Shown piece after piece: positions 1-37,280 of a DNA stretch of 38,464 nucleotides. A program made the position numbers and the translations under genes. How positions within the stretch are numbered: position 1 is the stretch's first letter; every line of letters starts with the position of its first letter. The notes under the pieces are model-generated. The model saw only the letters and a list, made by a program, of their open reading frames with translations. It was not told the DNA's origin and did not search any database. The stretch spans positions 1 through 38,464 of IMG/VR virus record IMGVR_UViG_3300033416_000019; one strand, given 5' to 3'. This DNA is from a virus. Taxonomy: Duplodnaviria; Caudoviricetes.

Positions 1-279
1 TTTGATAGGTGGTTCCTTGATAAAGTAGGGTACTTCGATGAGATCTTCAGCCCAGCGTGGGTTGAGGACGTAGACCTGTCCTGGAGGGCTAGCAGGCATG
101 GCTACCACCTGCACCCGGTACCAGAGACACCGATCTTCCACGTCTATGGGCAGACTGGGTACGATGGCAGGCTGAACTTCATGCAGATATGCGAGCTGAA
201 TGTAGTAAGGTTTGCGGACAAGATAGCGCAGGGGAATGATGGATGGATCGGGCCACCCAGGTTCAGGAGCAATGGATGA
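1..279 (+). CDS. GT2-family glycosyltransferase, C-terminal part (5'-truncated)
   Basis: Frame 1 is open from base 1 to TGA at 277-279 and reads VGYFDEIFSPAWVEDVDLSWRA, matching the GT2 G.FDE.F...EDVD...R motif. Not in the supplied ORF track. Confidence 0.85.
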   Translation, partial: FDRWFLDKVGYFDEIFSPAWVEDVDLSWRASRHGYHLHPVPETPIFHVYGQTGYDGRLNFMQICELNVVRFADKIAQGNDGWIGPPRFRSNG

Positions 280-506
280 AGATGAGCACTGGCAAGTGGA
301 TTGGCTGGAAGGACAATGTGTTCATTGATCGCCTTCACGATGATGTGGCGATGGTCACGTGTGTGTGCGGGGAAGAGCTTTGGCTGCGCCCACTGGCAAG
401 CTTCAGTAGTATCAAGGAGCACAAGTGCTGGAAGTGCGGGCGCAGGTTTAAGACGACGCTTAAGGTAGATGTGGAATACTACCTGGAGTATCTGAATGAC
501 CGATAG
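276..506 (+). CDS. Small putative Zn-ribbon protein
   Basis: CVC...CWKC cysteine pairs. ATG at 276 overlaps the upstream TGA (ATGA). Confidence 0.65.
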   Translation: MKMSTGKWIGWKDNVFIDRLHDDVAMVTCVCGEELWLRPLASFSSIKEHKCWKCGRRFKTTLKVDVEYYLEYLNDR

Positions 507-711
507 CAGATGGGTGGGGTTCAACAGGCCAGTAGAAGTGGAGTTCTTCGACGTCAAGGTGACGTTCAGGTGTATATGCGGGGAACCGAATACCCTGGAT
601 CTGTGCCTGGGGCAGTCCACTGAAAAGAAGTGTGGCTTCTGCAGGCGCTGGTATAGGCTTACGAATAACGTGGATGTGCAGTTACTGCTGGAGGGAGGTG
701 AGAAGATATGA
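496..711 (+). CDS. Small putative Zn-ribbon protein, paralogue of the previous gene
   Basis: CIC...CGFC pairs and the same W.G[WF]...CxCGE...CxxC.R...VDV layout as 276-506. Confidence 0.65.
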   Translation: MTDSRWVGFNRPVEVEFFDVKVTFRCICGEPNTLDLCLGQSTEKKCGFCRRWYRLTNNVDVQLLLEGGEKI

Positions 712-1403
712 TAGAAAGGATGGTTAGCTTTGTGATGCCAAGCGTGCGGCCAGCCAACTGCATCCGCACGATCAAGGCGACGTTGGCGCAATCAAAGGGG
801 CATAACGTAGAAATAGTGCTGGTCACTGAGAGGCTGGACGTGCTGCAGGTTGTGGAGCATATGCTGACTGGCGACGAAGACGCTAGGGTGAACATCGTCT
901 ATAGCGATATCGAACCGCGTGGCTCAGTGAGGGCGTGGAACGACGGGCTAAAGGAAGCGCGCGGGGAGTACATCTGCCTGTGGTCGGATGACGCGATGCC
1001 ACACGCCTACTTCCTTGACAACGCTCTCCCGATGTTCAAGCAATGGCCCGACGGTGTTGGATACGTTGCCTTTAACGACCTTCATGTCAATCCAGACCAG
1101 CTGTCGGTCTTCTACATCGCCCATCGTGAGTACATCGTCAAGTACCAGGGCGGTGTGTTAGTCTATCCTTGCTACCAAGGGCTGTTTAGCAATCTCGAAA
1201 GCACAATGCGCGCTATGATAGCTGGCAAGTTCGGCTACGCGGATACAGCTATAGTCGAACACCTGCGCCCGATCAGTAGGGAGCGTGCGGTGTATAGCCT
1301 TGGTGGTATGATGGCTAATGTGTATTCGGGAGACTTCAAAGTGTTTCTTGAGCGGCGGGATCAGTGGTTCCCCGATGATTGGGAACCAGCAATCAAAGAA
1401 TAA
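708..1403 (+). CDS. GT-A/GT2 glycosyltransferase
   Basis: N-terminal VSFVMPS, then AWNDGLKEARGEYICLWSDD (DxD-like motif). Confidence 0.85.
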   Translation: MIERMVSFVMPSVRPANCIRTIKATLAQSKGHNVEIVLVTERLDVLQVVEHMLTGDEDARVNIVYSDIEPRGSVRAWNDGLKEARGEYICLWSDDAMPHAYFLDNALPMFKQWPDGVGYVAFNDLHVNPDQLSVFYIAHREYIVKYQGGVLVYPCYQGLFSNLESTMRAMIAGKFGYADTAIVEHLRPISRERAVYSLGGMMANVYSGDFKVFLERRDQWFPDDWEPAIKE

Positions 1404-1417
1404 AAGGAGATGATGAA

Positions 1418-1663
1418 ATGGGTAAAGGCAGACCAGTAAGTACAAGCAGGCACAAGATGGGACAGGTAAGGCAGCAAATCGGGCTTACCATCTGGAAGGG
1501 CCAGAAAGAGAAGCTGGAATGGTGGGCGTGGTATACGGATAGGTCTATCTCCGCCATCATTCGCGTGCTGATCGATGAGTGGCTAGAGAAGATGGAGAAG
1601 CAGGTAGCTGAGCAGGGTGGTGCGAAGCTGTACGAGACGCCACAAGACTACAAGGAGGCGTAA
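1418..1663 (+). CDS. Ribbon-helix-helix-like DNA-binding protein
   Basis: GRP start, then IGLTI...KEKL...RSISAIIRVLIDEWL, an RHH pattern. AAGGAG precedes ATG 1418. Confidence 0.65.
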   Translation: MGKGRPVSTSRHKMGQVRQQIGLTIWKGQKEKLEWWAWYTDRSISAIIRVLIDEWLEKMEKQVAEQGGAKLYETPQDYKEA

Positions 1664-1698
1664 GATACCCGGAATTCGACACGAAGGCAGGGTGATCA

Positions 1699-2400
1699 AT
1701 GAGCTTTAAATCGCCCATCGTAGTCGGTGGCACTGGCGGATCGGGCACGCGCCTGATCTGCCACGCCCTCCAGCACGCCGGGGTGTTCATGGGGGATGAT
1801 GTGAACTACGCCCTGGACGCCATGCCGTGGGTCGATGTGGATAACAACTACTTCGAATGCTACGACGACCTGCCAAGCATCATCGATAAGGCTATGGAAC
1901 GGCACGGCGCTGGTGAGCAAAGGGGGCATAAGAATTGGGGATGGAAGCATACCAAGAGCTATCTGTCGCTCCCGATGCTCCACCAATACTTCCCTGAGAT
2001 GTCCTTCGTCCATGTGCTAAGGGACGGTCGGGATCTAGCCTATGCCCCCCACATCTCCCTTGCTGTATTCTGGACTGGCAGCATAAACACCGATAAGCCG
2101 CACCCCGAAGCGATTATGTCCCTATGGGCGGTGACCAACATGCTCACCGAAGCGTATGCTAGGCAGTTCGTGGAGCGGTACGTGCAGGTGAGGTTTGAGG
2201 ACATGTACTCCCGGCCAGCAGAGACGGCGAAGAAGCTGTATAAGGAGCTAGGGCTGAAGGTCGATAGAGAGACTGTTGAAAGTCTCCCGCTCACGATGCA
2301 CGCCCCACCTCCTGGCATCGGCAGGTGGAAAGGGAAAGAAGGACTGGACAGGGTAACCGCTGTCGGAGAACTAACACTACGGAGGTATGGATACCTATGA
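1699..2400 (+). CDS. PAPS-dependent sulfotransferase family protein
   Basis: GGTGGSGTRL (5'-PSB loop), WGWK, VHVLRDGRD (3'-PB) and VRFEDM motifs. Confidence 0.85.
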   Translation: MSFKSPIVVGGTGGSGTRLICHALQHAGVFMGDDVNYALDAMPWVDVDNNYFECYDDLPSIIDKAMERHGAGEQRGHKNWGWKHTKSYLSLPMLHQYFPEMSFVHVLRDGRDLAYAPHISLAVFWTGSINTDKPHPEAIMSLWAVTNMLTEAYARQFVERYVQVRFEDMYSRPAETAKKLYKELGLKVDRETVESLPLTMHAPPPGIGRWKGKEGLDRVTAVGELTLRRYGYL

Positions 2401-2636
2401 AAGCAATCAAATGTGATCGGTGCGGTAAGTTCTCAGTAACGGTACTCCAACGCCATGTCTATGATAAGAACTCCACTTACAGCACTGGTCTTACGCGTAA
2501 TGTCTTTGGAATAAGCTTAGCCCGCTGGCTCTCTTGGGATGATGGGGTTCCAAAGGAAGTGATTGATCTATGTTCCGATTGTTGCGAGTCGCTATCGCGT
2601 TGGTTGAGCCGATCTTATAGGGAGGATGATTTATGA
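2397..2636 (+). CDS. Small CxxC...CxxC Zn-finger protein
   Basis: MKAIKCDRCGK...DLCSDC, with ATGA overlaps at both ends. Confidence 0.7.
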   Translation: MKAIKCDRCGKFSVTVLQRHVYDKNSTYSTGLTRNVFGISLARWLSWDDGVPKEVIDLCSDCCESLSRWLSRSYREDDL

Positions 2637-3001
2637 AATACATATACATTGCTGGGCCGCTTACGTCTAGTGGCTATGCCTCTGATAACATCCGCAAGGC
2701 AGTATGGGCTGCGGAGAAGGTCATTTCAGATGGCCACTGGCCATTCCTGCCGCACCTCACCCACTTCTGGCACATGATCTCACCACACCGTGTGAACCAT
2801 GAAACCAGCCTATGGATGAAGATGGATAGGGCGTGGCTGGAGAAGTGCGATGCCCTAGTCCGTCTGGAGGGGGCGTCCGTTGGCGCTGACCTGGAAGTGC
2901 AGTGGGCTAGGGATGACCTGAAGCCAGTGTTCAGTGAGCAGCAGCTTTACGACGGCAGTATGAAGGAAGCCTTGAGGGTGATGGAGGAGATGGAGAAATA
3001 G
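2633..3001 (+). CDS. Nucleoside 2-deoxyribosyltransferase-like (DUF4406-like) protein
   Basis: IYIAGP...PH...D..WLEKCDALVRL.G.S.GA..E...A pattern. GGAGGA RBS. Confidence 0.75.
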   Translation: MKYIYIAGPLTSSGYASDNIRKAVWAAEKVISDGHWPFLPHLTHFWHMISPHRVNHETSLWMKMDRAWLEKCDALVRLEGASVGADLEVQWARDDLKPVFSEQQLYDGSMKEALRVMEEMEK

Positions 3002-3003
3002 CG

Positions 3004-3348
3004 ATGTACGAACTCGAAAAGAGCCTATACGTGAGGTTGGGTAAGCAGTTGGCAGACATGCTTTGTGAGAAGCGTGACGCGTATGGAGACAACCTAAAGA
3101 GTACAGGGGAGTTTCTGAGGATCCTTTATCCCGAAGGTATCCCGCCGTCTGCGTATGATGAGCTGGCTACAGTCATCAGGGTGATGGACAAGTTATTCCG
3201 CATCGCCAATAAGCAGGCCCACGACACCGTTGGGGATGCCTGGAAGGATAAGGAGTCTCCGCGGTGGGATGTCGCTGGCTATGGCTTGGCTATGGTCGTG
3301 GACAGGACGGTGCAGTTGAAGCCAGGTGTGGAGGTTGACAAATCATGA
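3004..3348 (+). CDS. All-alpha nucleotide-modification-associated protein (DUF1599-like)
   Basis: K..AYG...R..DKL.R...D.AGY motif series. Confidence 0.65.
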   Translation: MYELEKSLYVRLGKQLADMLCEKRDAYGDNLKSTGEFLRILYPEGIPPSAYDELATVIRVMDKLFRIANKQAHDTVGDAWKDKESPRWDVAGYGLAMVVDRTVQLKPGVEVDKS

Positions 3349-4217
3349 ATGTCCTTGTAACTGGCGGCTCAGGTTACATCGGCAGCAAGCTTGTGCGTAG
3401 GCTATATAATGAAGGTCACTCAGTTACCGTTCTCGATAAGGTAGTCGGGAAGGTGAAGGGTGCAAAGTACGTGGAGGGGGATGTACGCTATCCCAATGAT
3501 GTGCAGAGGGTGGTGTACGGCGTGGACGCAGTGGTGCACCTTGCTGCTATAGTAGGTGAAGAGGAGTATGAGAAGGATAAGTCGGTAGGGTATGAGGTGA
3601 ATGTCGTTGGGACGACGGTGGTCGTTGGTGAAGCGAAGGAAGCGGGGGTGAAGCGGCTCATCCTGGCATCTACTGGCAATGTGTACGGGAAGGTGGATCA
3701 CATGGCGAATGAGAGTGAGACGCCGCAGCCAGTAGACCGCTATGGCTATAGTAAGCTGATGGCCGAAGAGGTGGTGAAAGAGGGTAAGTACGTATCGGTG
3801 AGGTTTGGGACGGTCTGCGGGTGGAATGAGGATAAGATGCGATGGGACTTGCTGCCGCACGCCCTGCTGCGCGACCTGTCCTCCGGCGTGCGGTTCAAGA
3901 TGTACTCACCGGAAGCGTTCAGGCCAGTGACGCATATCGATGACGCTGTGGATGCGCTACTTACCCTTGCCAGCGTAGATCCGAACAGCGCGCTATCGGG
4001 GAAGGTGTTCAATATAGTCTCTGAGAATGTCAGCAAGCGGCTCATCGCAGATTGGGCCATTGCTCTAACGCGGTTCCCTGGCGTAGATTTCGTTACTGAT
4101 AAAGAGGACAAGCGTAACTACCTGATGGATCCACACCTCATCGAAAGGACGATGGGGTGGAAGCGCAAGAAGTTCCTAAGCCAAGCAATGAAAGAGGTGT
4201 ACCGTGCCGCTTGCTAG
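3345..4217 (+). CDS. NAD-dependent nucleotide-sugar epimerase/dehydratase (extended SDR)
   Basis: VLVTGGSGYIG, VVHLAAIVG, AST..VYG, catalytic YGYSK, RFGTV. Confidence 0.93.
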   Translation: MNVLVTGGSGYIGSKLVRRLYNEGHSVTVLDKVVGKVKGAKYVEGDVRYPNDVQRVVYGVDAVVHLAAIVGEEEYEKDKSVGYEVNVVGTTVVVGEAKEAGVKRLILASTGNVYGKVDHMANESETPQPVDRYGYSKLMAEEVVKEGKYVSVRFGTVCGWNEDKMRWDLLPHALLRDLSSGVRFKMYSPEAFRPVTHIDDAVDALLTLASVDPNSALSGKVFNIVSENVSKRLIADWAIALTRFPGVDFVTDKEDKRNYLMDPHLIERTMGWKRKKFLSQAMKEVYRAAC

Positions 4218-4953
4218 TGTGGTTATGTCGGTGAAGAATAGAGCGCAGCTGTTCAGGAATAGTGTCGTGCTGTACCGGAAGCAGACAGTGCCGTTTGAGT
4301 TGGTGGTGGTGGATGATGGGAGTACCGATAACCTGAAGGGTGTGATCGATGAGAATGGTGATATGAATATCAAGTACATCCGCCTTGAGCATAGCGGGCT
4401 GCGGTCACCCAACATCGGCCTGCTCACCGGGATGGAACAGTGCTCCGGCGATGTCATCATCCTGACCTGCGGCGCTGAGGTGCTGGTGCCAGATGATGCA
4501 GTGGAGACGGTGATTGAAGGTGCGTATGAGATGAAGCGGCGTGTAGGCATCTCCTGCTTCTGTCTGTCCCAGGCGATGCAGGAAGCGCTGGGTACAGTGA
4601 ACTGGAAAGAGGACGTCCATGAGATACAGAAGATCCCCGGCTTCTGGACTGAGGCGACGCCGTGGGGTAGCGTGAACACTTCCTACCAGATGAACGGCGC
4701 GATGACGCTATCCTTCAGCGGGGCGACTAGAGAGCACTGGGACTGGATCGGCAGGATACGGCGGACAGAGAGCATTGGGATGAATGACAGAGACCTGCTG
4801 GACAGAGAGCGGTTCTTAGGTATAGCTGGTAAGACGATCCTTGGCGCTCATGTGTACCATCAGTATCACAAGAGGTCGGGGAAAGAGTGGTCTGAGCTAT
4901 CGACAAAGGCGATTACATACACATCTGAAGAACAGGCGAGGCTACGATGCTAA
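4204..4953 (+). CDS. GT2 glycosyltransferase
   Basis: ASVVMSVKNR, ELVVVDDGSTD, degenerate acidic motif (CGAEV), C-terminal YHQYH. Confidence 0.85.
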   Translation: MPLASVVMSVKNRAQLFRNSVVLYRKQTVPFELVVVDDGSTDNLKGVIDENGDMNIKYIRLEHSGLRSPNIGLLTGMEQCSGDVIILTCGAEVLVPDDAVETVIEGAYEMKRRVGISCFCLSQAMQEALGTVNWKEDVHEIQKIPGFWTEATPWGSVNTSYQMNGAMTLSFSGATREHWDWIGRIRRTESIGMNDRDLLDRERFLGIAGKTILGAHVYHQYHKRSGKEWSELSTKAITYTSEEQARLRC

Positions 4954-5684
4954 TCAGTGTTGGTGCGCGATGTCTGAATGAGGAAGAACTGCTGCCGATA
5001 TTTCTGAAGAATCATCAGTTCGCTGATGAGATAGTGGTGTGCGATGGCGGGAGCACAGACAGGTCTAAGGAGATTGCTTTGTCCGACCCGAAAGTGGTAT
5101 GGGTGGACTTTCCTTATCGTGTCCCGTCGATGGGTGGCCACCCCGAAATCACCATGAACCCGGAAGGGAAGCATGTCAATGCAGTGATAGACGCCTGCCG
5201 TGGTGAGTGGTTGTACATAACAGAGGTGGACGTCGTGCCCGACCTAGCCATGCAGGATGCCATAAGGGATGTTATTCGTTTGGCTAAGTCGCCAGCTATC
5301 GGCTCGTATCTATACTATGTTGCCCCGATGAAGTCTCCTGGGAGTCCGTATGAATACTACCCCGCGTTGATACAGGGGTGGGGGCTGACGTGTTGGCATA
5401 AGGACATTGGTCTTAAGGTGCCCACTGAGGTGTGCGAGAATCTATCAGACCCATGCGCGTGGCCGCTGAAATCCAAGACCTGGGAGAACAACCAGAACAA
5501 CAAGAACGTGATCATCATGGATCGCCCCAGTGGTCGTGTCCATCTCACGTGGTGCACCAGAGAGCGAGTGCAGAACTGCATCAAGAAGTACGCCCTACGG
5601 GATAATCGGAATATCCCTGATCCTGACACCTACCTGACCAGGGCACTACTCCCCGACTGGATCGTATGGAACGGGATGTACTAA
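4947..5684 (+). CDS. GT2 glycosyltransferase
   Basis: LNEEELL, ADEIVVCDGGSTDRS.EIA, GEWLYITEVD. Confidence 0.88.
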   Translation: MLISVGARCLNEEELLPIFLKNHQFADEIVVCDGGSTDRSKEIALSDPKVVWVDFPYRVPSMGGHPEITMNPEGKHVNAVIDACRGEWLYITEVDVVPDLAMQDAIRDVIRLAKSPAIGSYLYYVAPMKSPGSPYEYYPALIQGWGLTCWHKDIGLKVPTEVCENLSDPCAWPLKSKTWENNQNNKNVIIMDRPSGRVHLTWCTRERVQNCIKKYALRDNRNIPDPDTYLTRALLPDWIVWNGMY

Positions 5685-5685
5685 G

Positions 5686-5892
5686 ATGGCTAAGAGCGTA
5701 ACCGTAGTTGACAACAGCAAGACTACCCGCATGACTGAAAAGCGGCGTCGGCAACTGAAGTCCAGCATCCATGCGTTGCTAGCGAAGGGGCTGTCATACG
5801 GAGAGGTTGCTAGAGAGCTGGATATCAGTAAGAGTGAAGTCCATGTTCTAGCTCATGAGAAGGATGAAAAGGAAGCACCACATGAAGATTGA
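5686..5892 (+). CDS. Small helix-turn-helix protein
   Basis: LLAKGLSYGEVARELDISKSEVH is a canonical HTH. Confidence 0.8.
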   Translation: MAKSVTVVDNSKTTRMTEKRRRQLKSSIHALLAKGLSYGEVARELDISKSEVHVLAHEKDEKEAPHED

Positions 5893-6982
5893 TTTCTACT
5901 GCCACCCAGGTAGCAACAGCTTCGTCTTCACGCCGCCGGATGTATGGGGCAGGGGAGTCGGCGGTGCGGAGCTATCCTTAATCTCCCTTGCTGAGACGTT
6001 CGCCAAAGACGGGCATAGGGTGCGGGTGTATAATGAGCCGTACAACAACCGCATGGAGGACTGCAGTGGTAGGTATAACGGCGTGTATTATCTCAACTCC
6101 ACCCTGTTCAATCTGTCAAAGGATCGGGATGTCTTCATCCTCTTCCGTAACCCATACCCCTACTTGCAGGGAGTAAACGCTAGGGTGAAGCTCTTTTGGT
6201 CGTGCGACCAAGTGACCACTGGCAACTACGCCACTGACATCTACCCATTCGTAGACAAAGGGGTGTGCATCAGCCTCTTCCACCAGGAAGACCACATAGA
6301 AAGGTATGGCGTGAGTAATGATAAGATCACGTGGATCGACCTGGGTGTGCGGCTGGAGGATTACGTTGATCCCTTGCCGAAGGTCAAGGGCAGGCTGATC
6401 TTCTGCTCCGTGCCGCACCGTGGGCTGCAGTGGCTCCTACCAATCTACCAAACATTGAAGGTGCTCCACCGCGACATCACCCTGCACATCACGTCCGACT
6501 ACACACTATGGGGCAGGGGGATTGGCCCGAATGATACAGACATGCGGACGATGTGGCGCGATGTATCAGGCGTAGACTACTTAGGCAACATCCCGCGCCG
6601 CAGCTTTATCGAGCAGCAGAAGCGCGCCGAACTCCTCATCTACCCGCACTACCCTGTTAGCGGGTACCCTGAACTGTTCGGTATCTCGGTGGCTGAATGC
6701 ATGGCCGCTGGTACGGTGCCGATCATCAGCACGCAGGGTGGGCTGAACATGACGGCGACAGGGGCTATCGTGATCAATGGTGATCCACGTGACCCTGATA
6801 TCCAGTTCAGGTACATCGAAGCTGCCTCCTTCTATCTACGGTACCCGAACAGGATGGATGAGGCAGCGAAGTATTGCCAGTCCATGGCGAATCGCAGGTT
6901 CGATTGGACAACCATAGCTAAGCAGTGGTATAATCTATTTGAGGAGATATTGAATGGGCGAAACCAAAAGCAACCCGTATAG
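5882..6982 (+). CDS. GT-B/GT4 glycosyltransferase
   Basis: GVGGAE, GHRV.V, S.P.RGL..L, and the EX7E motif ELFGISVAECMAAG. Confidence 0.9.
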   Translation: MKIDFYCHPGSNSFVFTPPDVWGRGVGGAELSLISLAETFAKDGHRVRVYNEPYNNRMEDCSGRYNGVYYLNSTLFNLSKDRDVFILFRNPYPYLQGVNARVKLFWSCDQVTTGNYATDIYPFVDKGVCISLFHQEDHIERYGVSNDKITWIDLGVRLEDYVDPLPKVKGRLIFCSVPHRGLQWLLPIYQTLKVLHRDITLHITSDYTLWGRGIGPNDTDMRTMWRDVSGVDYLGNIPRRSFIEQQKRAELLIYPHYPVSGYPELFGISVAECMAAGTVPIISTQGGLNMTATGAIVINGDPRDPDIQFRYIEAASFYLRYPNRMDEAAKYCQSMANRRFDWTTIAKQWYNLFEEILNGRNQKQPV

Positions 6983-7526
6983 CCTAAAGGCTAGGCTAAG
7001 GGGTATACAGAAGAAGTACGGAGATATAGTGTGCCTGGACTTGGGGTGTGGCAAGGACGAAAGCCCTATCAGCCACGCGGTGCTGGAGATCCCCTGGCGC
7101 GTCCTTGTCTCTGTGGACGCCTGGGAGCATAATATCAGCGCCCTCCAGGACAAGAGGAAGGCAGGTGGTATCGCTGCTGTCCACTGGACGTACTACATTG
7201 AGCCGATAGAGAAGATCGTCCCACGCTTGCCGGACAAGAAGTACGATGTCACCCTGTTCATCGACTCCCTAGAACACCTGCCAAAGCCTGTTGCTCTTTC
7301 TATGCTGGCGGAGGCTGAGCGCCTTACCACTACCCGCATCATTATCTTCCTGCCTATCGGCCCTTGCCCGCAGGGGCCACTGAACGGCAACCCGTTTGAA
7401 GTCCATCAATCTACGTGGACGGTGGATGAACTAGAAAGCCTGGGCTATGACGTCCAGCTCTTCCCGCAACTCCACCGTCACATCAATCCTTGGGTGGATG
7501 CTGCCTGGGCTGTCAAGAAAGTGTGA
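6954..7526 (+). CDS. Class I SAM-dependent methyltransferase
   Basis: LDLGCG motif I, YDV.LFIDSLEHL, H.STW. Confidence 0.87.
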   Translation: MGETKSNPYSLKARLRGIQKKYGDIVCLDLGCGKDESPISHAVLEIPWRVLVSVDAWEHNISALQDKRKAGGIAAVHWTYYIEPIEKIVPRLPDKKYDVTLFIDSLEHLPKPVALSMLAEAERLTTTRIIIFLPIGPCPQGPLNGNPFEVHQSTWTVDELESLGYDVQLFPQLHRHINPWVDAAWAVKKV

Positions 7527-7527
7527 T

Positions 7528-7556
7528 TTGCATAATCGCGTAGGGTCGCGTATAAT
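7528..7556 (+). promoter_or_regulatory. Sigma70-type promoter for the neck/tail genes
   Basis: TTGCAT (7528-33), 17-bp spacer, perfect TATAAT (7551-56), in the gap before the adaptor gene. GAGGT RBS follows. Confidence 0.7.
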
Positions 7557-7591
7557 CCACCCAACGATCTACCTATCCCGCGAGGTACGCC

Positions 7592-8320
7592 ATGATCAAT
7601 ACTATCGGTGGGGTGGACATAACCAATGTCGTTCGGTTGAGGATTGACGACGAAGACTCAAGCGACTATGAATTCAGCGACACCAAATTCAATGAGTGGT
7701 TAGCCCACGCCGTCAGAGCTTACAGCAAGGAACGCCCATACGTCCTGGAGACGACGATAAGCCACGTCGAAGACCAGGATATCTACGCGCTGCCATCCGG
7801 ATTGGAGAGGGTCATAGAGTGCCAGTATCGGCTGTCCTTTGACACTAACGTCTATGAGCCGCTGGAAGATACCACGCTGGCTGGGTTTTCTACATACGAC
7901 TGGCCAGCATTAGACCTGATCCGCCGGATGCTGCGTGTGAAGTATGATGAAGTGGCCGTCGGCCACTGGGAAGTCATTACTAATCGCACCTCCTACGCTG
8001 CTGGTAAGTACCTTGTAATCTATCCTGCCCCTGACAGTTCCACTGGCGACTTCACTGTCCGCTACTCCGCAACACACCCGCTATCAGGCTCGGACTACTT
8101 TACTATTCCAGCAGAGCACGCCTACCTACTGGCCGATCTCCTGGTATCCTATGCCCTGAAGCGCCGCGCCATGAAGTTCTTCAAGAACCCAATGGACTAT
8201 GATGCTGGGCAGACGCGTATCCGTCGTGGGGCGACGATAGACCATCTGAACAGAGAAGCTGATATACTGGAGCAGAAGGTATGGAATGCGCTGCGGGGAA
8301 CGGTGATCGCGATAGGGTAG
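7592..8320 (+). CDS. Putative head-tail adaptor (neck) protein
   Basis: VRLRI.D.....FSD....WL..A N-terminus, Y.LP, L.IYPAP and a helical C-terminus. First gene of the structural operon. Confidence 0.6.
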   Translation: MINTIGGVDITNVVRLRIDDEDSSDYEFSDTKFNEWLAHAVRAYSKERPYVLETTISHVEDQDIYALPSGLERVIECQYRLSFDTNVYEPLEDTTLAGFSTYDWPALDLIRRMLRVKYDEVAVGHWEVITNRTSYAAGKYLVIYPAPDSSTGDFTVRYSATHPLSGSDYFTIPAEHAYLLADLLVSYALKRRAMKFFKNPMDYDAGQTRIRRGATIDHLNREADILEQKVWNALRGTVIAIG

Positions 8321-8637
8321 TCTTCAGGGTAAGAGAGGCGTCATCGGAGTTCGCGCTGCCACTATCTATTGGTAGCGACGGTATAGTGGAGGAAGTGAAG
8401 TACGTGTCTTCCGATATACCGGAGGGGCTATTGTGCTTCGAAGTCCCGGTGACACGCTCTTGGCTGAAGATGTATTCCTTGGACGGAGAGCCAGAGACAG
8501 AAAGAGAAGTCCAGTGGATGTTGCGCGCCGGACACGCTACCTTCCATCGGCCTGTATGGAAGGTGTTCAACGGGACACTGTACTTGTGGCCTCCTGCACC
8601 ATGCGACGGAAGACTGATAGTTGACTACGTGAAGTAA
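8281..8637 (+). CDS. Hypothetical protein resembling the adaptor beta-domain
   Basis: WKVFNGTLYLWPPAPCDGRLIVDY resembles WEV...YLVIYPAPDSSTGDFTVRY of the previous gene. Start uncertain (40-nt overlap). Confidence 0.5.
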   Translation: MECAAGNGDRDRVVFRVREASSEFALPLSIGSDGIVEEVKYVSSDIPEGLLCFEVPVTRSWLKMYSLDGEPETEREVQWMLRAGHATFHRPVWKVFNGTLYLWPPAPCDGRLIVDYVK

Positions 8638-8664
8638 GTCTTCCGTACTAACTAGGGCACAACC

Positions 8665-9114
8665 ATGGCACCAAGAACATCATCTTCCAACTTCACTCAA
8701 AAAGATGGCGTAACGCTACAGGATCACCTTGAAGACAAGCTGAAAGCTTGTGATGCCCGCTGGCAAGTGGCGTTTCAGGCGCAGCGTGACTTTGGGACAG
8801 CCCAGGCCGATGCGTTGAAAGAGGCTGTACGGCTATTGGCGCACCAGTATGAGATCAAGTTCGAAGCGCAGAACGAATGGCGTGGGTCGTTAAATGACTT
8901 TGTTCATACTTTAGCGACCAAGGATGAGGTTGTCCTGCAGGTGGACAAATTGCGTGGTGAGTATTGTTTGCAGATGGATCGTGCCAATTCCGATATCAAG
9001 GCACTCAATGGCTTCATGAACAACATGCAGGGCAAGGCTAGTCAGACATCGGTGATCATCACCTTATTGCTCTCGGTCGCAGCTTTGATCCTCAGTATAG
9101 CGAAAGCATTCTAA
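8665..9114 (+). CDS. Coiled-coil protein with C-terminal transmembrane helix
   Basis: Helical body ending VIITLLLSVAALILSIAKAF. Confidence 0.65.
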   Translation: MAPRTSSSNFTQKDGVTLQDHLEDKLKACDARWQVAFQAQRDFGTAQADALKEAVRLLAHQYEIKFEAQNEWRGSLNDFVHTLATKDEVVLQVDKLRGEYCLQMDRANSDIKALNGFMNNMQGKASQTSVIITLLLSVAALILSIAKAF

Positions 9115-9131
9115 CCGTAGGGGGGTAGAAA

Positions 9132-9479
9132 ATGGCAGACCTGATCGACCGTATCTCCGGAGATGCGGAGTGGCAAGTCCCGTCGCGCCCTAAGATCAAC
9201 CTACACCGCTTCATGGCCGCTGAGCGCCTATACGCGCTTGGTGAGTGCACTGGGGCACAGGTAGCTGCTGAGTTTGACTTCCAGGGCAATGAGCTGACCC
9301 AAGCTACGCAGCTCAAAGCAGCTATCGACTCTCAGAGCAACGTCACCAACAAGATACTTTATGTCCTGCGGGCTGAAAGCGTGCTCATGTGCATTGAAGA
9401 CCATAGGGATGGGCTGTACCACGCTGGCGGTGCAGTGAATAAAGCGAAGGTATATGAAGACTTGCAGATAGTGGGGTAG
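9132..9479 (+). CDS. Hypothetical (probably virion-associated) protein
   Basis: Packed in the operon with a G-rich RBS. No family recognised. Confidence 0.6.
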
Positions 9480-9480
9480 T

Positions 9481-12400
9481 ATGGCTCTATCAGCAAAGTG
9501 CGGCAGTTTCAATGCCGATACAGCAAAGACCGCCGGACAGACGCAGGCTATCACTGGGCTTGGGTTCACACCCAAGCTTGTTTTGTTCTGGTGGAGCGGC
9601 TCAACGCGCACAAGCGACGGCGTTGCTGGTGGCGATGTCAGCATGGGCTTCGGTGCGGCAAGTTCTGCATCAAGCCGTAGTTGTGTTGCTACGTTCAGCC
9701 TGGACGCCGGGGCCAAGGCTTACTCTGACCACCTAGACTCCCTTACCTGTTGTATCTACGTCTACTCCGCTGCTGCCACGTGCGGCGGTAGCTTCGACCT
9801 GACTTCACTGGACTCCGGTGGCTTCACCCTTGACGTAATCACGCAGTTCGCTGCTGCCACACGCATCTCCTACCTAGCGCTTGGTGGTACGGATATCTCC
9901 AACGTCTACATCGGGTCGCGGTTGATGGCAACCGCCACCGGGAACTATGACACGACTGACGTTGGGTTCCAGCCGGACGCTGCGTTGTTCTTCAGCGCAG
10001 TCACAGCGGCGCATGATACAGACTACGTTACTCAATACATTTCACTCGGTTGGGCTACAGCGTCGGATAAGCAGGGTGTTATCTCAGGCTCTGCAGCCAA
10101 CAACGTCGCCACGTCCAACACGACTGGCTACGGGTACAACGGGGAAGTAATAGCCATAGCCACCCCTGCGCTGGGGTGTATGTACCGCCACTCCTTCACC
10201 TCATTCCTGTCCAACGGCTTCCGCCTCAACCGTCTGGAAGGGACGGTCGCCTATTACTTCACCTACGTCTGTATCAAGGGCGGGAGCTTCGCTGCTGGTG
10301 ACTTAACCACGCGTACCGACGGGAATGATATCGCTGAAGTTGTCGGCTTCCAGCCAACAGCGATCCTGTTCGGCAGCGCTAACCGTGCTCTCAGTACCCA
10401 GGACACACTCACCGATCATTCTTCCCTAAGCATCGGTGCGGCCACTGCCACTGACAACCGCACCTGCCAAGCGGAGTGGGATGAGGATGCTCTTGCTGAT
10501 TCGGAAACCGCTACCGCGTATTATGACGCTGCCTGCTACGCCAACATCGCTCACGATGCTATTGTAGCCCTGATGGATCTGAAGTCCATCGACAGCAGTG
10601 GCTTCACCTGCGTCATGGATGATACAGAGGCGTCGGCGTCCTGGGTGACGTACCTAGCCTTCGGTAATCAGATCCCAGTGGAGAGCGAGTCCGAATCGGC
10701 AAGCCCATCCACCAGCGCTAGTACAAGCGCAAGTACGTCGGCTAGCACCAGCGCAAGTACGTCGGCTAGTGCATCGGCTAGTAAGTCGGCTAGCGCGTCA
10801 GAGAGCGCAAGTGAGAGCGCAAGCGAGAGCGTATCTCCTAGCGCCTCTGAGAGCGCGTCGATATCGCCGTCGGAGTCGGAGAGCGCCAGTCCATCCCTAT
10901 CAGAGAGTGCCAGTGAGAGCGTGTCTCCTAGCACTTCGGAGAGCGCTAGCCCTAGCGTTAGCCCAAGCTTGTCTGAAAGCGCTAGTGAGAGTGTCAGTCC
11001 TAGCCTCTCTGAAAGTGCTAGTGAGAGTGTCAGCCCAAGTGTCTCTGAGAGCGCTAGCGAGTCAGTATCGCCGTCACTGAGCGAGTCGGCTTCTGAGAGC
11101 GTTTCGCCAAGCGTTAGTGAGAGCGCGTCGGAGAGCGTCAGCCCATCGGTATCCGAGAGTGTGTCTCCATCGGTTAGCGAATCAGCTAGCCCGTCTTTAT
11201 CAGAGAGCGCCAGCCCAAGTATATCTGAATCCGTCTCACCTAGCGCCAGTGAGAGCGTGTCTCCTAGCGTGTCTGAAAGCGCTAGTGAGAGTGTCAGCCC
11301 GTCGGTATCTGAGAGCGTCAGCGAGAGCGTCAGCCCTAGCCTCAGTGAGAGCGCTAGCCCGTCGGTATCAGAGAGTGTCAGCCCAAGCCTGTCTGAGAGC
11401 GTCAGCCCATCGCTGTCTGAAAGCGTGTCTCCGTCAGAATCCGAGAGCGTTAGCCCGTCGGTATCGGAGAGCGCCAGCGAGTCGGTAAGCCCTAGCGTCT
11501 CTGAAAGCGCATCCGAGAGTGCTAGCCCAAGTCTGTCTGAGAGCGCTAGCCCGTCCGCTAGCGAGAGCGTATCACCGTCGGTTAGTGAAAGCGTATCACC
11601 TAGCCTATCGGAGAGTGTTAGTCCATCTCTATCAGAGAGCGTTAGTCCATCTCTATCTGAAAGCGTCAGCCCTAGCCTGTCTGAGAGCGTCAGTGAAAGC
11701 GCTAGCCCAAGTGGTGGTGAGAGTGCCAGCGAGTCAGCGTCGCCATCGCTTTCTGAAAGCGCTAGCCCATCTCTATCAGAGAGTGCGTCGCCGTCGGTGT
11801 CTGCATCGGTGTCTGCATCGGTTAGCGCATCGGCATCAGAGTCGGTTAGTCCGTCGGAGTCGGAGAGTGTATCACCCTCTGGGTCAGAAAGCGTGTCTCC
11901 GTCAGAATCCGAGAGCGTCTCACCATCGGTATCTGAGAGTGTGTCTCCGTCGGAGTCGGAGAGCGTCTCCCCTTCAGAATCAGAGAGTGTATCACCTTCA
12001 GAATCCGAGAGCGTCTCTCCGTCTATCAGTGAGAGCGTCAGCCCATCCGCCTCAGAGTCAGTCAGCCCCTCCGTCTCTGAGAGCGCTTCTGAGAGCGCGT
12101 CGGCGTCCGCTGGCAGTGCATCGGAGTCCGCTTCCCCTAGTCTCAGTGAGTCCGTCAGCCCTAGCGTCAGCGCCTCAGCTTCCGAGAGTGCGTCGCCGTC
12201 GGTATCAGAGTCGGCCAGCGAGAGCGTGTCCCCGTCTGTCTCTGAGAGCGCTTCGCCGTCAGCGTCTGCAAGTGTTAGCCCTTCTGCATCAGAGAGCGTA
12301 AGTGAAAGCGCTTCGCCGTCTGTCAGCGCAAGCGCTAGCCCATCGGTCTCCGCAAGCGCTTCAGAGAGCGTCAGCCCATCTGTCTCTGAGAGCGCTTCTG

Positions 12401-12546
12401 AGAGCGCGTCGGTCAGCCCGTCGGTATCTGAGAGCGTCAGCGAGAGCGCGTCGCCCAGTCCCGCTGGCGCAGGTCTAGTCGCTCCGATCATCAGCTCTAT
12501 GGGCATTTTCAGTGTGATAATGGGTGGGGGTATCATCAGTGGATAG
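9481..12546 (+). CDS. Serine-rich repeat (mucin-like) putative virion protein, 1021 aa
   Basis: About 400-aa beta-rich N-domain with three GF[TQ]P repeats, then about 590 aa of (S-X)n and a short hydrophobic C-terminus. No signal peptide or LPXTG. Confidence 0.88.
10684..12459 (+). repeat. (Ser-X)n coding repeat, units such as [12 protein letters not shown]
   Basis: Ser at almost every second codon with X = E, A, P, V, L or T. TCN and AGY codons are mixed. Confidence 0.97.
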
Positions 12547-13147
12547 CATAAGGATGTTCAATAAGATCAGGAAGACGTACAACCCTGGGCTGGATAAGGT
12601 GCCGCCTATCAGGTTGGCTAAGTGGCGAAGGGATGTGCTTATCGCGAACCTGGGGGCGTGTGGGTTTACGCGCGGTGCGGAGCTTGGGGTGCGCGAGGGG
12701 TTAGGCGCACTGAAGATGTGCCAAATGATGCCGGGGCTACATCTAATCCTGGTGGATCCGTGGGACGTATGGCCTGGACATAAGGACATGGATGGCCATG
12801 CTGACGACCCGTTGCTGTTCTTGGAAGAGGCGCAGGAGCGACTGAGAGGGTATGACTGCGAGTTCATACGGGCCAAGAGTGCGGACTACGCCAGCAATGT
12901 GCCGGACGCTTCGCTGGACTTTGTGTACATCGATGGCGATCATAGCTTCGACGGCACTATGCTAGACCTGATCCTTTGGGCACCGAAGGTCAGGGTAGGC
13001 GGCGTGATATCTGGCGATGGGTACAAGCACTATAGATACACCGGGGTGATCCCAGCTGTAGATACCTACACACGGCAGCACTTGGTTCATGAGTGGTACA
13101 TCACTGGTGAGATGGACTCAACCTACTTCTGGAGGAAGAATGGTTAA
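12524..13147 (+). CDS. Class I SAM methyltransferase (Methyltransf_24-like)
   Basis: [31 protein letters not shown]. The real start may be 12539 or 12554. Confidence 0.9.
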
Positions 13148-15212
13148 GGATCGCGTTTCAGTTATCATACCGGGTCGGTGTGAGCCATACTTCCAGCAGA
13201 CCATAGACTCTGTGTTGGATAGGGCCACCGGGGACATAGAAGTAATCGCTATTGTAGATGGCCCAGGGCAGGAGCCGCCACTGCACAGTGATGACCCAAG
13301 GGTGAAGATCATCGTTCTCGATAAGAGTATCGGCCAGCGGGCAGCGTACAACCTGGGCGTTCGCGAAAGCACTGGGCAATACATAATGAAGATCGATGCC
13401 CACGCTTTGTTCAGTGGCGGCTTTGATGATATACTGAAAGCGAACTGTCCAGAGAAGACGATAGTGCTGCCGGAGATGCGGCGGCTCAATGTGCATACAT
13501 GGCAGGATAAGTCGCGCGGCAGGACGCACTTCATGCACATCGGGCTGGACTTATACTGTCACTACTGGAGCGAATACCGTAGGAGGCCAGAGGCCAAGGT
13601 TGAGTATCCAGAGGTGATGACGGGGCAGGGGTCATGCTGGTTCACAACGCGGGAATGGAATGACTACATTGGCCTGCTGGATGAGCGTGTCGGTTCATGG
13701 GGAAATGTAGGCATTGAGGTCAGCCTACGTACATGGTTGTGCGGTGGTAGCCAGATCGTCAATAAGCACTGCTGGCAGGCTCACTGGTTCAGGAAGGATG
13801 AAGGCGGCTTCACCTACCCGATGGATGGCAGGCAGGTCGCCAAAGCGCATAAGTTCACTAGGGATAATTACTACTTCAAGGATGATGCCTTTGAGCATCA
13901 GGTTAGGCCGTTCTCTTGGATCATTGATAAGTTCGCTCCGGTGCCTGGATGGGAGGCATATTCAGTGGATCACTTTGAGACTAGCAGGGCAATCATCTAT
14001 TACACCGACCACCACATTGACGAAAGGCTAGCTGCAGCCTGCCGTAAGGTACTGGCTGAAGCTGCTGGCCCGATACCTATCATCAGTGTATCGCAGAAGC
14101 CGCTGAACTTCGGGAAGAATATCTGTGTTGGGGAGAAGCCAAGGAGTAATAGGAGTATCTATGAGCAGATACTGGCTGGGTTGGAAGCTGCGCCGGAGGG
14201 GGCGGTGATCTACCTAGCGGAGCATGATGTCGCGTATACCCCGTCGCACTTCGCCTACGTCCCGGAGGTGAAGGATAGACTAGACTACAATCAGAATAGG
14301 TATTACTGGGCACCTGGGCAGACGGAGTACCTTCCGGCACGCGGGCAGTGGCCGCTCAGCCAGCTTGTAGCCTATCGTGAGTTTCTGATCGAGAAGGTGA
14401 AGGAGTCGCTGGCTGCAGATGAGCCATCGTCGGAGATGTACCACTGCAGGACAGCGAAGTTTGAGAGTGATCGGCCCAATGTTGATATCAGGCATGGGCT
14501 GAACTTCTCAAAGGACGGCAGGTGGAAGCGGGAGTACGCCGCTGGCAGGGCGGAGTCCACTGTCGGCAACATCGGCCACTGGGGATCGCCGCGTTGGTTC
14601 CAGAAGAAACTTGGGTGGACGCCGACTCCCGAAGAGGTCGGGCTGTCCCCTTTAGCGCGATACCTGCGTAGGGACTATGGGCTAGATCGCTTTCGCCCTG
14701 GCCCGATACGGGTGAAGGATATGCACCGTGGCGATGTGTCCAGGTTGATTGGGCTGATGGGGTTGACTAAAGGCGCGGAGATTGGGGTAGCTGGCGGTGA
14801 GCACTCAGAGATCATCCTGAAGAATATCGAAGGGTGTGAGTTGTTATGTATAGATACCTGGGGGACGTCGTGGTCGAAGAAGCTGTACGAGCCAGCGGTG
14901 AAACGGTTGGCTCCGTACAACGCTAAGATCATACGGGCGTCGTCTATGGAGGCGGCCCGCGATGTGCCGGATGGGTCGCTTGACTTTGTATACATCGACG
15001 CCAGCCATGAGTTCGACAACGTGATGGAAGACCTGATCACTTGGTCACGTAAGGTGAAGAAGGGCGGTATCGTCAGCGGTCACGATTATGACAAGCCACA
15101 TCGGAAGGGCGTAGTCCCCGCGGTGGACTTGTACACCAAGATGCATGGCATACAAGAATGGTTTCTCACCGATCAGGTACGCGAAGCGTCGTACATGTGG
15201 GTGAAGCCATAG
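13140..15212 (+). CDS. Three-domain enzyme: ppGalNAc-T-like GT-A + second GT-A-like domain + SAM methyltransferase
   Basis: Domain 1: SVIIP, KIDAH, WG...E.SLRTWLCGG, HWFRK. Domain 2: IIYYTD...YLAEHDV.Y. Domain 3: GAEIGV, LDFVYIDASH, GG..SGHDY. GGAGGA precedes ATG 13140. Confidence 0.88.
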   Translation: MVKDRVSVIIPGRCEPYFQQTIDSVLDRATGDIEVIAIVDGPGQEPPLHSDDPRVKIIVLDKSIGQRAAYNLGVRESTGQYIMKIDAHALFSGGFDDILKANCPEKTIVLPEMRRLNVHTWQDKSRGRTHFMHIGLDLYCHYWSEYRRRPEAKVEYPEVMTGQGSCWFTTREWNDYIGLLDERVGSWGNVGIEVSLRTWLCGGSQIVNKHCWQAHWFRKDEGGFTYPMDGRQVAKAHKFTRDNYYFKDDAFEHQVRPFSWIIDKFAPVPGWEAYSVDHFETSRAIIYYTDHHIDERLAAACRKVLAEAAGPIPIISVSQKPLNFGKNICVGEKPRSNRSIYEQILAGLEAAPEGAVIYLAEHDVAYTPSHFAYVPEVKDRLDYNQNRYYWAPGQTEYLPARGQWPLSQLVAYREFLIEKVKESLAADEPSSEMYHCRTAKFESDRPNVDIRHGLNFSKDGRWKREYAAGRAESTVGNIGHWGSPRWFQKKLGWTPTPEEVGLSPLARYLRRDYGLDRFRPGPIRVKDMHRGDVSRLIGLMGLTKGAEIGVAGGEHSEIILKNIEGCELLCIDTWGTSWSKKLYEPAVKRLAPYNAKIIRASSMEAARDVPDGSLDFVYIDASHEFDNVMEDLITWSRKVKKGGIVSGHDYDKPHRKGVVPAVDLYTKMHGIQEWFLTDQVREASYMWVKP

Positions 15213-18820: not shown

Positions 18821-19285
18821 GTGCCTAGCCCAACTGCTGCCGGGAAACTAGCCAACTTTGAGAATGAGCTTGAAACGGAGTTGCTGGCCTTTGCCCAGGA
18901 AGTGGAAAACTGGACGCGCGGTCAGCGTGACTTGTATTGGGATAATGATACAGGTTCTGCCGACGCGTCTATCACCGGGTTTGTAGTGGATGTGGAAGAC
19001 CCGATGAAGAACGTGAACAGGTCGCCATGGCCAGAGGCTAGATCTGGCATAGTGAGGTCGCGCCACCGCAACCCCCCGGCGCACTATACCCCAACCCAAC
19101 CAGACCTTGATCCGCCGCCACCCGACACGATTATGGAAGTCGGGCTATCAGTGAACACTGAGTACGCTGAGTTCATCGGTGCAGAAAGGGGATCCGATTC
19201 AGTCGTCGATCTCCTTGAAGAAGCCCTGGCCTTCAATACGCGAGCGCTGGTTGACCACGTACTGAACGCTTGGAGGAATGCCTAA
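18821..19285 (+). CDS. HK97 gp10-like neck/tail-completion protein
   Basis: W.N.TG.A..SI and V..NTEYA.F motifs. Confidence 0.55.
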   Translation: MPSPTAAGKLANFENELETELLAFAQEVENWTRGQRDLYWDNDTGSADASITGFVVDVEDPMKNVNRSPWPEARSGIVRSRHRNPPAHYTPTQPDLDPPPPDTIMEVGLSVNTEYAEFIGAERGSDSVVDLLEEALAFNTRALVDHVLNAWRNA

Positions 19286-32359: not shown

Positions 32360-32361
32360 TA

Positions 32362-35300: not shown

Positions 35301-35835
35301 CGCTACCCCAACGCCCACTGACACACCTACCCCAACGGTCACACCGACGCCAACTCCATACGGTGGTAGTAGCCCCATCGTCCTCAACGAGATAATCGTC
35401 ATACCAGGGAGGGATCATAACTATGACGGCACCACAGACCTGGATGACCAAGGGGTTGAACTATATAACCGTGGAACCACTGATGTGGATTTGTCGAATT
35501 GGGAATTTGTGATATATGATGGATATACTGAATCGGAATATGTGCAGTTGCCGCAAGGGTTCACGCTGGACGCTGGCGCATGGTGGGTAATGCGCCCGAA
35601 GCAAATGGATAATGTGCATCTGTCCACTGTTGAAGGAAAGGTGTCCTTGTACAACAGTGACCACACATTAATAGATTCAGTATACTGGGGTTCTGGTGGG
35701 TGGGTTCCAGTAAGTGGGATGTCGTGGGGGAGGTACCCTGATGGTGAAGAAACGTGGAACTCGCTTTACCCAAGCCCCGGATATGCCAATTTGCCATGGC
35801 CCACGGCAACGCCGACGGCGACTGCAACGCCTTAG
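32362..35835 (+). CDS. Membrane-anchored multidomain protein: glycoside-hydrolase-like, DNRLRE and lamin-tail domains with PT linkers
   Basis: Basic plus hydrophobic N-terminus; P.Y....Y..FI..LG..FNG...G..GE and AY..AFP.K; DTYI...LLRFD...ATWN...DVT.LV..W; IVLNEI...VELYN...DLS.W...GRYPDG...SPG..N; four PT tracts. Confidence 0.8.
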
Positions 35836-37196: not shown

Positions 37197-37213
37197 CATA
37201 GGTAGTAATAATA

Positions 37214-37268
37214 AGTAGACATTCAACAAACATTCAGTAAACATTCAGTAAACATTCAGTAGACATTA
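37214..37268 (+). repeat. Five tandem 11-bp repeats (AGTAAACATTC consensus)
   Basis: agtagacattc aacaaacattc agtaaacattc agtaaacattc agtagacatta. Confidence 0.92.
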
Positions 37269-37280
37269 TATGAGGATACT

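Follow-up and report, generated by a model that had tools for sequence, protein, structure and literature searches.

According to the available excerpts of the sources cited in this paragraph, the start of O-glycosylation of the mucin type has been described in animals and in some protists (PMC8724618), and the DxH motif is specific to the glycosyltransferase (GT) families GT27 and GT60 (PMC7185993), the latter being a sister of GT27 that includes soluble cytoplasmic members (PMC7185993; PMC8724618). O-glycosylation of serine-rich repeats in serine-rich repeat (SRR) glycoproteins is established (PMC12355684). The mycobacteriophages Che8 (gp108-110), Corndog (gp36-38) and Myrna glycosylate their own particles, with glycans carried C-terminally on subunits of the capsid and the tail tube (PMC12619734, PMC12363180, PMC11256854), and phage GTs acting on phage DNA or on host surface polysaccharide are both established (PMC12619734). 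Here we describe a further arrangement in the virus record IMGVR_UViG_3300033416_000019 (Duplodnaviria; Caudoviricetes), analysed at its full length of 38,464 bases and called the window below. It encodes a stalk protein with a long (Ser-X)n tract, in which serine alternates with other residues (9481-12546), and behind it a fused three-domain enzyme (13140-15212) whose first domain resembles the GalNAc-transferases of GT27. The pairing of this enzyme with its putative substrate is real, widespread and undescribed in the literature searched. Judging from sequence and modelled structure, we consider it likely that the enzyme glycosylates the Ser-X stalk and that the stalk is borne on the virion.

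The window is a fragment of a long-tailed phage, with an estimated completeness of 56%. Its main genes all lie on the + strand and are laid out as a sugar-modification cluster (1-7526), the head-tail adaptor (7592), and the tail-completion, tape-measure and distal tail genes. The core pair and its neighbours are the following:

7592-8320, + strand: head-tail adaptor (PF24175, E 4.8e-11; phrog_399), which opens the structural block containing the core pair.
9132-9479, + strand: 115-residue gene product, which accompanies the stalk head domain whether the tract is present or not.
9481-12546, + strand: stalk protein (core), consisting of head, (Ser-X)n tract and C-terminal peptide.
12524-13147, + strand: stand-alone Methyltransf_24 O-methyltransferase (PF13578, 1.2e-13), likely start 12554.
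13140-15212, + strand: three-domain enzyme of 690 residues (core), with GT27-like, GT-A-like and O-methyltransferase domains.
15224-16576, + strand: protein with a conserved N-terminal Ig-like domain of 105 residues, a candidate docking site for the stalk peptide.

The stalk head comprises 396 residues with three internal repeats of about 130 residues and is followed by the Ser-X tract at residues 404-997 (nt 10690-12471). The initial annotation had described about 590 residues of (Ser-X)n in the neck gene block with two enzyme genes behind it, and this was borne out: the tract has 594 residues and is followed by the genes at 12524 and 13140. It contains 294 serines at alternate positions, no Ser-Ser pair and, internally, three pairs of adjacent non-serine residues. 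All six serine codons are used (AGC 107, TCG 48, AGT 46, TCT 43, TCA 30, TCC 20), and this mixture therefore points to selection acting on the protein and not to a DNA repeat or slippage; tandem-repeat units agree at 67-100%, in short pieces only. The stalk protein has no signal peptide (N-terminal hydropathy 0.84), and its gene is placed between the head-tail adaptor and the tail-completion and tape-measure genes. In the Atlas the head matches viral clusters of 145-204 residues (a viral fibre-type domain), with DUF7483 at 0.85 as a lead only; no Pfam family was found for it, DUF7483 being matched by one of 55 members. Relatives of the 9132 product, 62-67% identical, precede the head domain in the loci L002-L006. 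Among close relatives the heads before the tract vary (LamG in four and CBM96 in one of the 28 flanking segments scanned, most being unnamed), heads thus being exchanged while tract and enzyme are retained. The stalk gene abuts the enzyme gene directly in most relatives; here the methyltransferase gene intervenes, and its stop overlaps the start of the enzyme gene.

The enzyme gene most likely starts at 13140, not 13089, and its product has no transmembrane helix (maximum hydropathy 1.2). Its three domains cover residues 1-282, 283-500 and about 520-690. Pfam labels domain 1 as GT2 (PF00535, 3.8e-13). When domain 1 was searched against PDB sequences, 15 of 17 matches were polypeptide GalNAc-transferases (ppGalNAc-Ts), and its profile matched PDB ppGalNAc-Ts over the full catalytic domain with an E-value of 3e-13, then 7e-21 over positions 4-253 with a 28-member profile, bacterial GT2 structures covering just the first 100-125 positions or so. 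A structure model built from 88 sequences reached a pLDDT of 93.8, an earlier model from 9 sequences, poor at residues 154-271, being used for the methyltransferase domain only. In Foldseek, all listed matches above rank 34 were GalNAc-Ts; the VIA all-representative fold search returned GalNAc-Ts at Z 26.5 and 25.7, with the next family at Z 18.9, and domain 1 superposes on a GalNAc-T structure with a root-mean-square deviation of 2.7 Å over 273 residues at about 20% identity.

The active site follows the same resemblance in part. D86, H88 and H215 are invariant in 28 sequences, 27 of which came from a profile search without motif filter. Together with R218 they correspond to the Mn ligands D224, H226 and H359 and the phosphate-binding R362 of GalNAc-T2, and all four are kept in 42 of 42 close members. 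DxH and the C-terminal His occur in 257 of 257 family domains, a set in which many loci were collected by their DxH pattern, which biases the DxH count but not that of the His. In the excerpt available, the description of the GalNAc-T2 active site lists 12 residues, including the GalNAc-binding R208 and E334 and the A307-G308-G309 pocket (PMC4388629). On a mapping by GalNAc-T1 alignment and motif spacing, six of the 12 are retained in domain 1 (D86, H88, G164, W187, H215, R218), five are substituted (R208 to Y70, A307 to Q163, G309 to S165, E334 to V190, Y367 to F224) and one falls in a gap. Since the GalNAc-contacting residues are replaced, the donor sugar of domain 1 is not predictable as GalNAc. 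With metal and phosphate machinery intact and sugar-specific contacts lost, the domain probably works like a GT27 enzyme yet is not one; membership of GT27 was rejected on these substitutions (the R208 and E334 equivalents) and on the lack of a ricin lectin and a membrane anchor.

Domain 2 has a predicted GT-A/nucleotidyltransferase-like fold (Z 11.4-11.8 to IspD-type nucleotidyltransferases) and an invariant E-x-D, which reads E361-H-D363 in the window's enzyme. Pfam and PDB sequence searches gave no match for it even with 60 sequences, PF00535 being weak in 5 of the 60, and an origin as a duplicate of domain 1 was not detectable (profile comparison probability 8.7%). Domain 3 matches PF13578 (3.8e-14) and COMT/CCoAOMT-like folds and is, on its modelled structure, a putative O-methyltransferase of cation-dependent type. 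PHROGs labels the methyltransferase domains 'DNA methyltransferase'.

The enzyme travels with the tract. The 80 loci of close relatives form 54 clusters at 97% identity, or 53 once the window's own cluster is excluded, and a same-strand Ser-X tract stands beside the enzyme in 43 of these. Co-occurrence of a GT with Ser-rich proteins among relatives, on which the initial annotation had made its proposal depend, was thus found. Six of the ten clusters lacking a tract have fewer than 300 bases of upstream DNA; the tract is present in 42 of the 46 clusters with at least 300 bases upstream and in 21 of the 22 that have 4 kb downstream as well. It ends no more than 120 nt from the enzyme start in 33 clusters, and the stop of the tract gene overlaps the start of the enzyme gene in most relatives. 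In the distant family (65 loci, not dereplicated) a tract was found in 45 loci, and in 31 of 35 when loci of at least 12 kb are counted; the linkage persists at 34-43% enzyme identity and across different heads. The ASPS pattern, estimated at about 350 stretches among 2.9 million contigs, matches 5 of the 65 distant and none of the 53 close loci and is not a like-for-like background for this linkage.

The converse comparison shows that the enzyme follows the Ser-X tract and not the head domain. A Ser-X tract occurs in 2 of 120 listed relatives of the stalk head domain (120 of 147 matches) and in one of eight viral head-domain loci, the contig in question encoding two family enzymes, and a complete genome with a tract-free head-domain locus encodes no family enzyme. 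Repeat patterns alone led to 79 loci of at least 6 kb: of the 12 that have a Ser-X tract, 6 (5 of 10 contigs) also encode the enzyme, and it is missing from all 67 that lack a long Ser-X tract, many of which are Thr-Pro-rich. The five Ser-X contigs without the enzyme in the stretch are one complete genome with three copies elsewhere, three fragments of 18-20% completeness and one 96%-complete provirus.

A conserved peptide of about 22 residues ends most stalk proteins of the subfamily. It was seen at the ends of Ser-X proteins only, none of the stored proteins P0001-P0394 (the 120 head-domain relatives included) carrying it. Its last codons overlap the start of the next gene, and this overlap accounts for some of its conservation, not for that of its N-terminal half. 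In 22 clusters the peptide and the 105-residue Ig-like domain occur together in 13, are both missing in 7, and the domain occurs alone in two, both with divergent stalk tails, the peptide never occurring alone (Fisher p 2e-4, kinship ignored); two distant-family loci also have both. Their co-occurrence suggests that the peptide may be a virion anchor that docks on the Ig-like domain, an alternative reading being that it is a docking tag for the enzyme. Three other types of conserved C-terminal peptide were observed on Ser-X proteins (in L021, L061 and L072; in L040 and L083; in L012 and L039), which suggests several interchangeable virion hooks.

From these features the following mechanism can be proposed. 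The soluble enzyme would O-glycosylate the Ser-X repeat in the host cytoplasm and produce a sugar-coated stalk. In domain 1, D86, H88, H215 and R218 would hold Mn2+ and a UDP-sugar, from which serine hydroxyls would receive the first sugar in a retaining reaction like that of GT27; a second sugar or some other nucleotide-activated group would be attached by domain 2, and O-methylation by domain 3 and by the 12524 product would cap the glycan. Attachment would come from the C-terminal peptide, which would bind the Ig-like domain of the 15224 protein and so take the role that the LPXTG anchor has in bacterial SRR adhesins. By packing densely, the glycans would turn the 594-residue tract into a stiff brush, about 150-200 nm long by an estimate from per-residue lengths, which could hold an exchangeable head (LamG, DNRLRE/CBM96 or the threefold 130-residue type) off the particle and shield it from proteases. 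Observation covers the build of the two proteins, the modelled fold, the conservation of the metal ligands and the linkage of the genes; that the stalk sits on the virion neck and is glycosylated is probable.

The family was found well beyond this window. A profile search gave 271 representatives at E <= 1e-30, and a pattern scan found 423 viral stretches, the best 80 of which were kept; the window's subfamily forms one clade of 43 tips with a support of 1.0 (FastTree). Four DNA runs, belonging to three studies of freshwater or wetland sites, contain at least half of a 6-kb part of the window, one of these runs possibly being its source, and no RNA run was among the listed datasets matching that part. 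Among isolated phages, 40 of the 58 matching records were listed and all were methyltransferase-domain matches; another search added two weak matches to the N-terminal half. The close subfamily was not found in GTDB genomes. The wider family, sought there by DNA pattern, is encoded in 73 of 80 pattern loci, with a tract within the flank in 19, and a 'phage-only' distribution was rejected on these chromosomal loci. Several of them adjoin leuRS, the genes for ribosomal proteins L1, L10 and L11 (rplK), EF-P (efp) or tsaE in Patescibacteria-type contigs. Two of the five Patescibacteria-type genomes checked have Ser-X patterns on the same strand, 7-12 kb further downstream, and a third has matches on other contigs. 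A literature search found no account of phage or Patescibacteria GT27-like enzymes together with Ser-X proteins; Freeman et al. 2023, reportedly the original study of mycobacteriophage virion glycosylation, may list further phage GT families.

As a separate observation, the loci L321, L329, L343, L351, L361 and L369 are chromosomal cassettes beside housekeeping genes on contigs of Patescibacteria-type metagenome-assembled genomes, several of them titled Gammaproteobacteria. They hold a Y1-transposase-like/SH3 gene, a membrane protein and several GT27-like and Methyltransf_24 genes, and end in fibre-like or Ser-X genes without signal peptide.

Several observations weigh against the view that the enzyme glycosylates a virion-borne stalk. 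Y70 and V190 stand at the GalNAc-binding Arg208 and Glu334 sites in all 42 close members, and the sequence thus leaves room for domain 1 using another donor, or acting on sugar instead of serine. The linkage counts (43 of 53 clusters) come from related phages and are not independent events. In one cluster, L056, the enzyme stands without a tract, the sequence covered being 1.1 kb on its upstream and 4.1 kb on its downstream side. The 96%-complete provirus mentioned above (L133, G004) encodes a protein of 1810 residues with three long Ser-X tracts and no GT27-like gene; it shows weak N-half GT2 matches only, in an ordinary GT2 cluster, and is possibly a second enzyme solution for Ser-X tracts. 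No full-length family member occurs in the 50,697 records of isolated phages. The presence of the wider family in cellular chromosomes shows that virion display is not its sole use, and gene position is what suggests the virion location of the stalk.

These points define the alternatives. The chromosomal loci, 73 of the 80 GTDB pattern loci and several in housekeeping regions, where a cell-surface use is presumed, raise the question of whether the glycosylated Ser-X protein, instead of being part of the virion, decorates infected or lysogenic cells or is set free as a decoy; the downstream same-strand Ser-X patterns in two such genomes and the hydrophobic C-terminal peptide (1.85) fit this idea. 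We regard it as improbable, given that the stalk has no signal peptide, that its gene stands between the adaptor and tail-completion genes, and that most relatives inspected lie in structural blocks; in addition, the tract is fused C-terminally to another domain in two relatives, L065 showing a weak tail-completion match (PF11367, E 0.001), and the close subfamily is absent from the GTDB genomes searched. The substituted donor-binding residues of domain 1 would also fit an enzyme that only extends or caps a first sugar placed by the host, or that glycosylates capsid or tail-tube subunits, the tract being host-modified or a bare linker. Of 167 single-domain paralogues found elsewhere, 64% retain the Glu, and initiation might in fact be their task; in addition, one provirus has tracts without the enzyme. 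However, the complete genomes of the close subfamily encode no single-domain paralogue, the linkage is to the tract, down to stop/start overlap, and the GTs of Che8 and Corndog reach no more than 13 bits against the family profile, compared with 250-400 for members, which makes this explanation unlikely.

Still less can be said for an enzyme that modifies phage DNA or host surface polysaccharide, in restriction evasion or receptor masking, with the Ser-X gene hitch-hiking beside it. Both roles are established for phage GTs and the PHROGs label of the methyltransferase domains would agree, but the fold is nearest to enzymes with peptide acceptors, the methyltransferase is COMT-like, a membrane anchor is absent, and the linkage holds across different heads and at low enzyme identity, so that we consider it very improbable. 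A broader proposal, compatible with stalk glycosylation by the fused enzyme and an addition to it, is that the entire cluster at 1-7526 elaborates the stalk glycan by adding more sugars, methyl groups and sulfate, and has the proteins with Pro-Thr (PT) and Trp-Ser-Tyr (WSY) tracts as additional targets. The cluster lies on the same strand immediately upstream of the structural block, additional GT2 and GT4 genes are found elsewhere in G011, one of the three complete relatives, and distant cassettes often include epimerases and methyltransferases. Its linkage is nevertheless not conserved, the sulfotransferase is missing from the related genomes, the GT4 relatives belong to other phages without a tract, the PT protein has a membrane helix and the enzyme is absent from the non-Ser-X loci; the proposal is possible but doubtful.

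The upstream cluster, which is accessory to the core pair, occupies 1-7526 on the + strand and contains five GT genes, a sulfotransferase, an epimerase and a methyltransferase:

1-279, + strand: GT gene fragment cut by the window start, with weak matches (PF13632, E 0.014; TIGR03965, E 6e-5).
708-1403, + strand: GT gene (PF13641, 1e-7).
1699-2400, + strand: sulfotransferase (PF13469, 6.9e-14).
3345-4217, + strand: epimerase (PF01370, 2.1e-37).
4204-4953, + strand: GT gene (PF00535, 1.7e-12).
4947-5684, + strand: GT gene (PF00535, 1.6e-4, under the cut-off).
5855-6982, + strand: GT4 gene (PF13439, 3.6e-7; phrog_2170, 2.7e-11).
6954-7526, + strand: methyltransferase (PF08241, 7.6e-5).

The inventory given in the initial annotation stands, with refinements. 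The three methyltransferase domains, the sulfotransferase and the NDP-sugar epimerase are all present by Pfam, and so are six GT genes, the first being weak and the 4947 gene below the cut-off; the seventh GT domain is indicated by predicted fold and E-x-D only. Its proposal that all of these enzymes form one coat system was not supported. The family loci compared contain no relatives of the 708, 4204, GT4 and 6954 genes, the sulfotransferase or the first GT fragment, and only six and four distant matches to the epimerase and the 4947 gene, respectively. Each of five relatives (three of them complete) has exactly one family domain. The fusion is the single GT2-type match in two of the complete genomes (65 and 43 kb), which show no GT4, sulfotransferase or epimerase match and have tracts of 513 and 229 residues directly upstream of the enzyme; the extra GT2/GT4 genes of the third, G011, are 30-45 kb away. 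Since two complete genomes manage with one fused enzyme and a stalk gene, the cluster is accessory: it is real, but not shown to be part of the stalk system. The core is the stalk gene plus one fused enzyme, with methylation inside it and sulfation outside. The sulfated glycans that had been suggested are unsupported, and sulfation as a core step was rejected, the sulfotransferase being matched in none of five related genomes and having no conserved linkage. The two viral relatives of the GT4 (L383 and L384) lie in clusters without a Ser-X tract or GT27-like gene. These sugar-modification clusters stand directly behind probable capsid genes and might glycosylate capsids in the manner of the mycobacteriophages.

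Further hydroxyl-rich tracts that had been noted in the distal part of the window are present, with qualifications. One belongs to a second stalk gene:

28489-29386, + strand: second, shorter stalk gene with a DNRLRE/CBM96-like head and a Ser-X tract of about 107 residues.

The open reading frames at 28489 and 28745 are one stalk gene, so that the tract at 29048 lies in a frameshifted gene, with the frameshift near 28825 between short near-direct repeats. In the relative L006 the gene is continuous and about 10 residues longer, and two contigs of one run from another study, at a depth of about 6, have 20 extra bases near 28825, a site that the remaining three runs do not span; the frameshift is either an assembly slip or a phase-variable deletion. 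The WSY tract (29909-30262) forms 118 residues at the N-terminus of a tail-end protein without a family match, and contains Trp, Ser and Tyr at 16% each, plus Gly. The PT tracts lie in a protein of 1160 residues (32353-35835) with DNRLRE and lamin-tail domains and an N-terminal hydrophobic helix, no relatives of which were found within the length range searched and which resembles host surface proteins of Chloroflexota type. The suggestion that the PT and WSY proteins are further substrates found no support and was rejected, neither being linked to the enzyme, which occurs in 0 of 67 non-Ser-X loci.

Other features of the window concern different functions. The tape-measure protein (19270-23487) contains a Hint (intein-like) domain near its C-terminus (residues 1170-1275; PF05203, 1.4e-7), with a Gly-Asp repeat (22704-22757) ahead of it. 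The region 36312-37583 holds a reading frame of 294 residues with metallophosphoesterase-like His/Asp motifs recognised by eye and no Pfam match, followed by one of 100 residues. The gene-poor end (37214-38221) carries an 11-mer repeated 4.9 times, a perfect 22-mer in two copies and nested 30-, 16- and 7-mer repeats, and is a possible origin or packaging region.

If glycosylation of the stalk by this enzyme is true, a lectin-less, membrane-free GT27-like family, found in no fewer than 423 stretches of viral DNA and in numerous small bacterial genomes, would bear on the origin of mucin-type O-glycosylation, and glycocalyx-like coats would be common on environmental virions. The complete genomes with one enzyme gene and one substrate gene represent the simplest experimental case, and a soluble cytoplasmic serine O-glycosyltransferase would be of use for producing defined mucin mimics in bacteria. 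A wider picture can be put forward only tentatively: a large family of soluble GT27-like peptide O-glycosyltransferases in phages and ultra-small bacteria, near the prokaryotic stock of the animal mucin initiators, in which one polypeptide initiates, extends and methyl-caps, and a 22-residue peptide hooks a stalk with an exchangeable lectin head to an Ig-like neck domain, forming a glycocalyx as long as the tail.

Compared with the animal and apicomplexan GalNAc-Ts of GT27 (8v9q, 1xhb, 2ffu, 8uhv), the phage enzyme has in common the whole catalytic fold, the DxH and C-terminal His, the Trp and Arg equivalents of W331 and R362, and substrate-like Ser/Pro-rich repeats nearby. It differs in having no ricin lectin or N-terminal membrane anchor, in its predicted cytoplasmic location, in its fusion both with a further GT-A-like domain and with an O-methyltransferase, and in its occurrence in phages and small bacterial genomes. 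With the polypeptide alpha-GlcNAc-transferases of GT60, known from protists and prokaryotes, it shares DxH and the lack of a lectin; no GT60 chain is among the listed PDB or fold matches. Phage models labelled 'Glycosyltransferase, GlcNAc' are lower-ranked fold matches of the enzyme (E 2e-9), and the Pfam 'GlcNAc' GT family gave no match in 13 enzyme members at E <= 1. The likeness to the SRR adhesins of streptococci, staphylococci and lactobacilli (GspB, Srr-1, SraP, SRRP) drawn in the initial annotation holds for the architecture, a binding head, a (Ser-X)n stalk and a C-terminal anchor with GT genes alongside. The initiating enzyme of SRRP, GtfA/B, has a GT-B fold, whereas the linked phage enzyme is a GT-A, GT27-like (ppGalNAc-T-like) protein, a point that had been missed; a GtfA/B initiator was not seen, and a GT4 match is absent from three of four complete genomes. 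The phage stalk, unlike SRRP, has no long signal peptide or LPXTG, ends in the 22-residue peptide and lies in a virion gene block. SecA2/SecY2 and LPXTG, stated earlier to be absent, were indeed not seen in family scans of the reading frames of the window, itself 56% complete. As for the mycobacteriophages, Che8 gp110 and Corndog gp38 have negative scores on the family profiles, and Che8 gp110 gave no sequence match to GalNAc-Ts. What the mycobacteriophage system and the present one, known from genes alone, have in common are soluble GTs encoded by the phage, and what distinguishes the latter is a dedicated repeat stalk.

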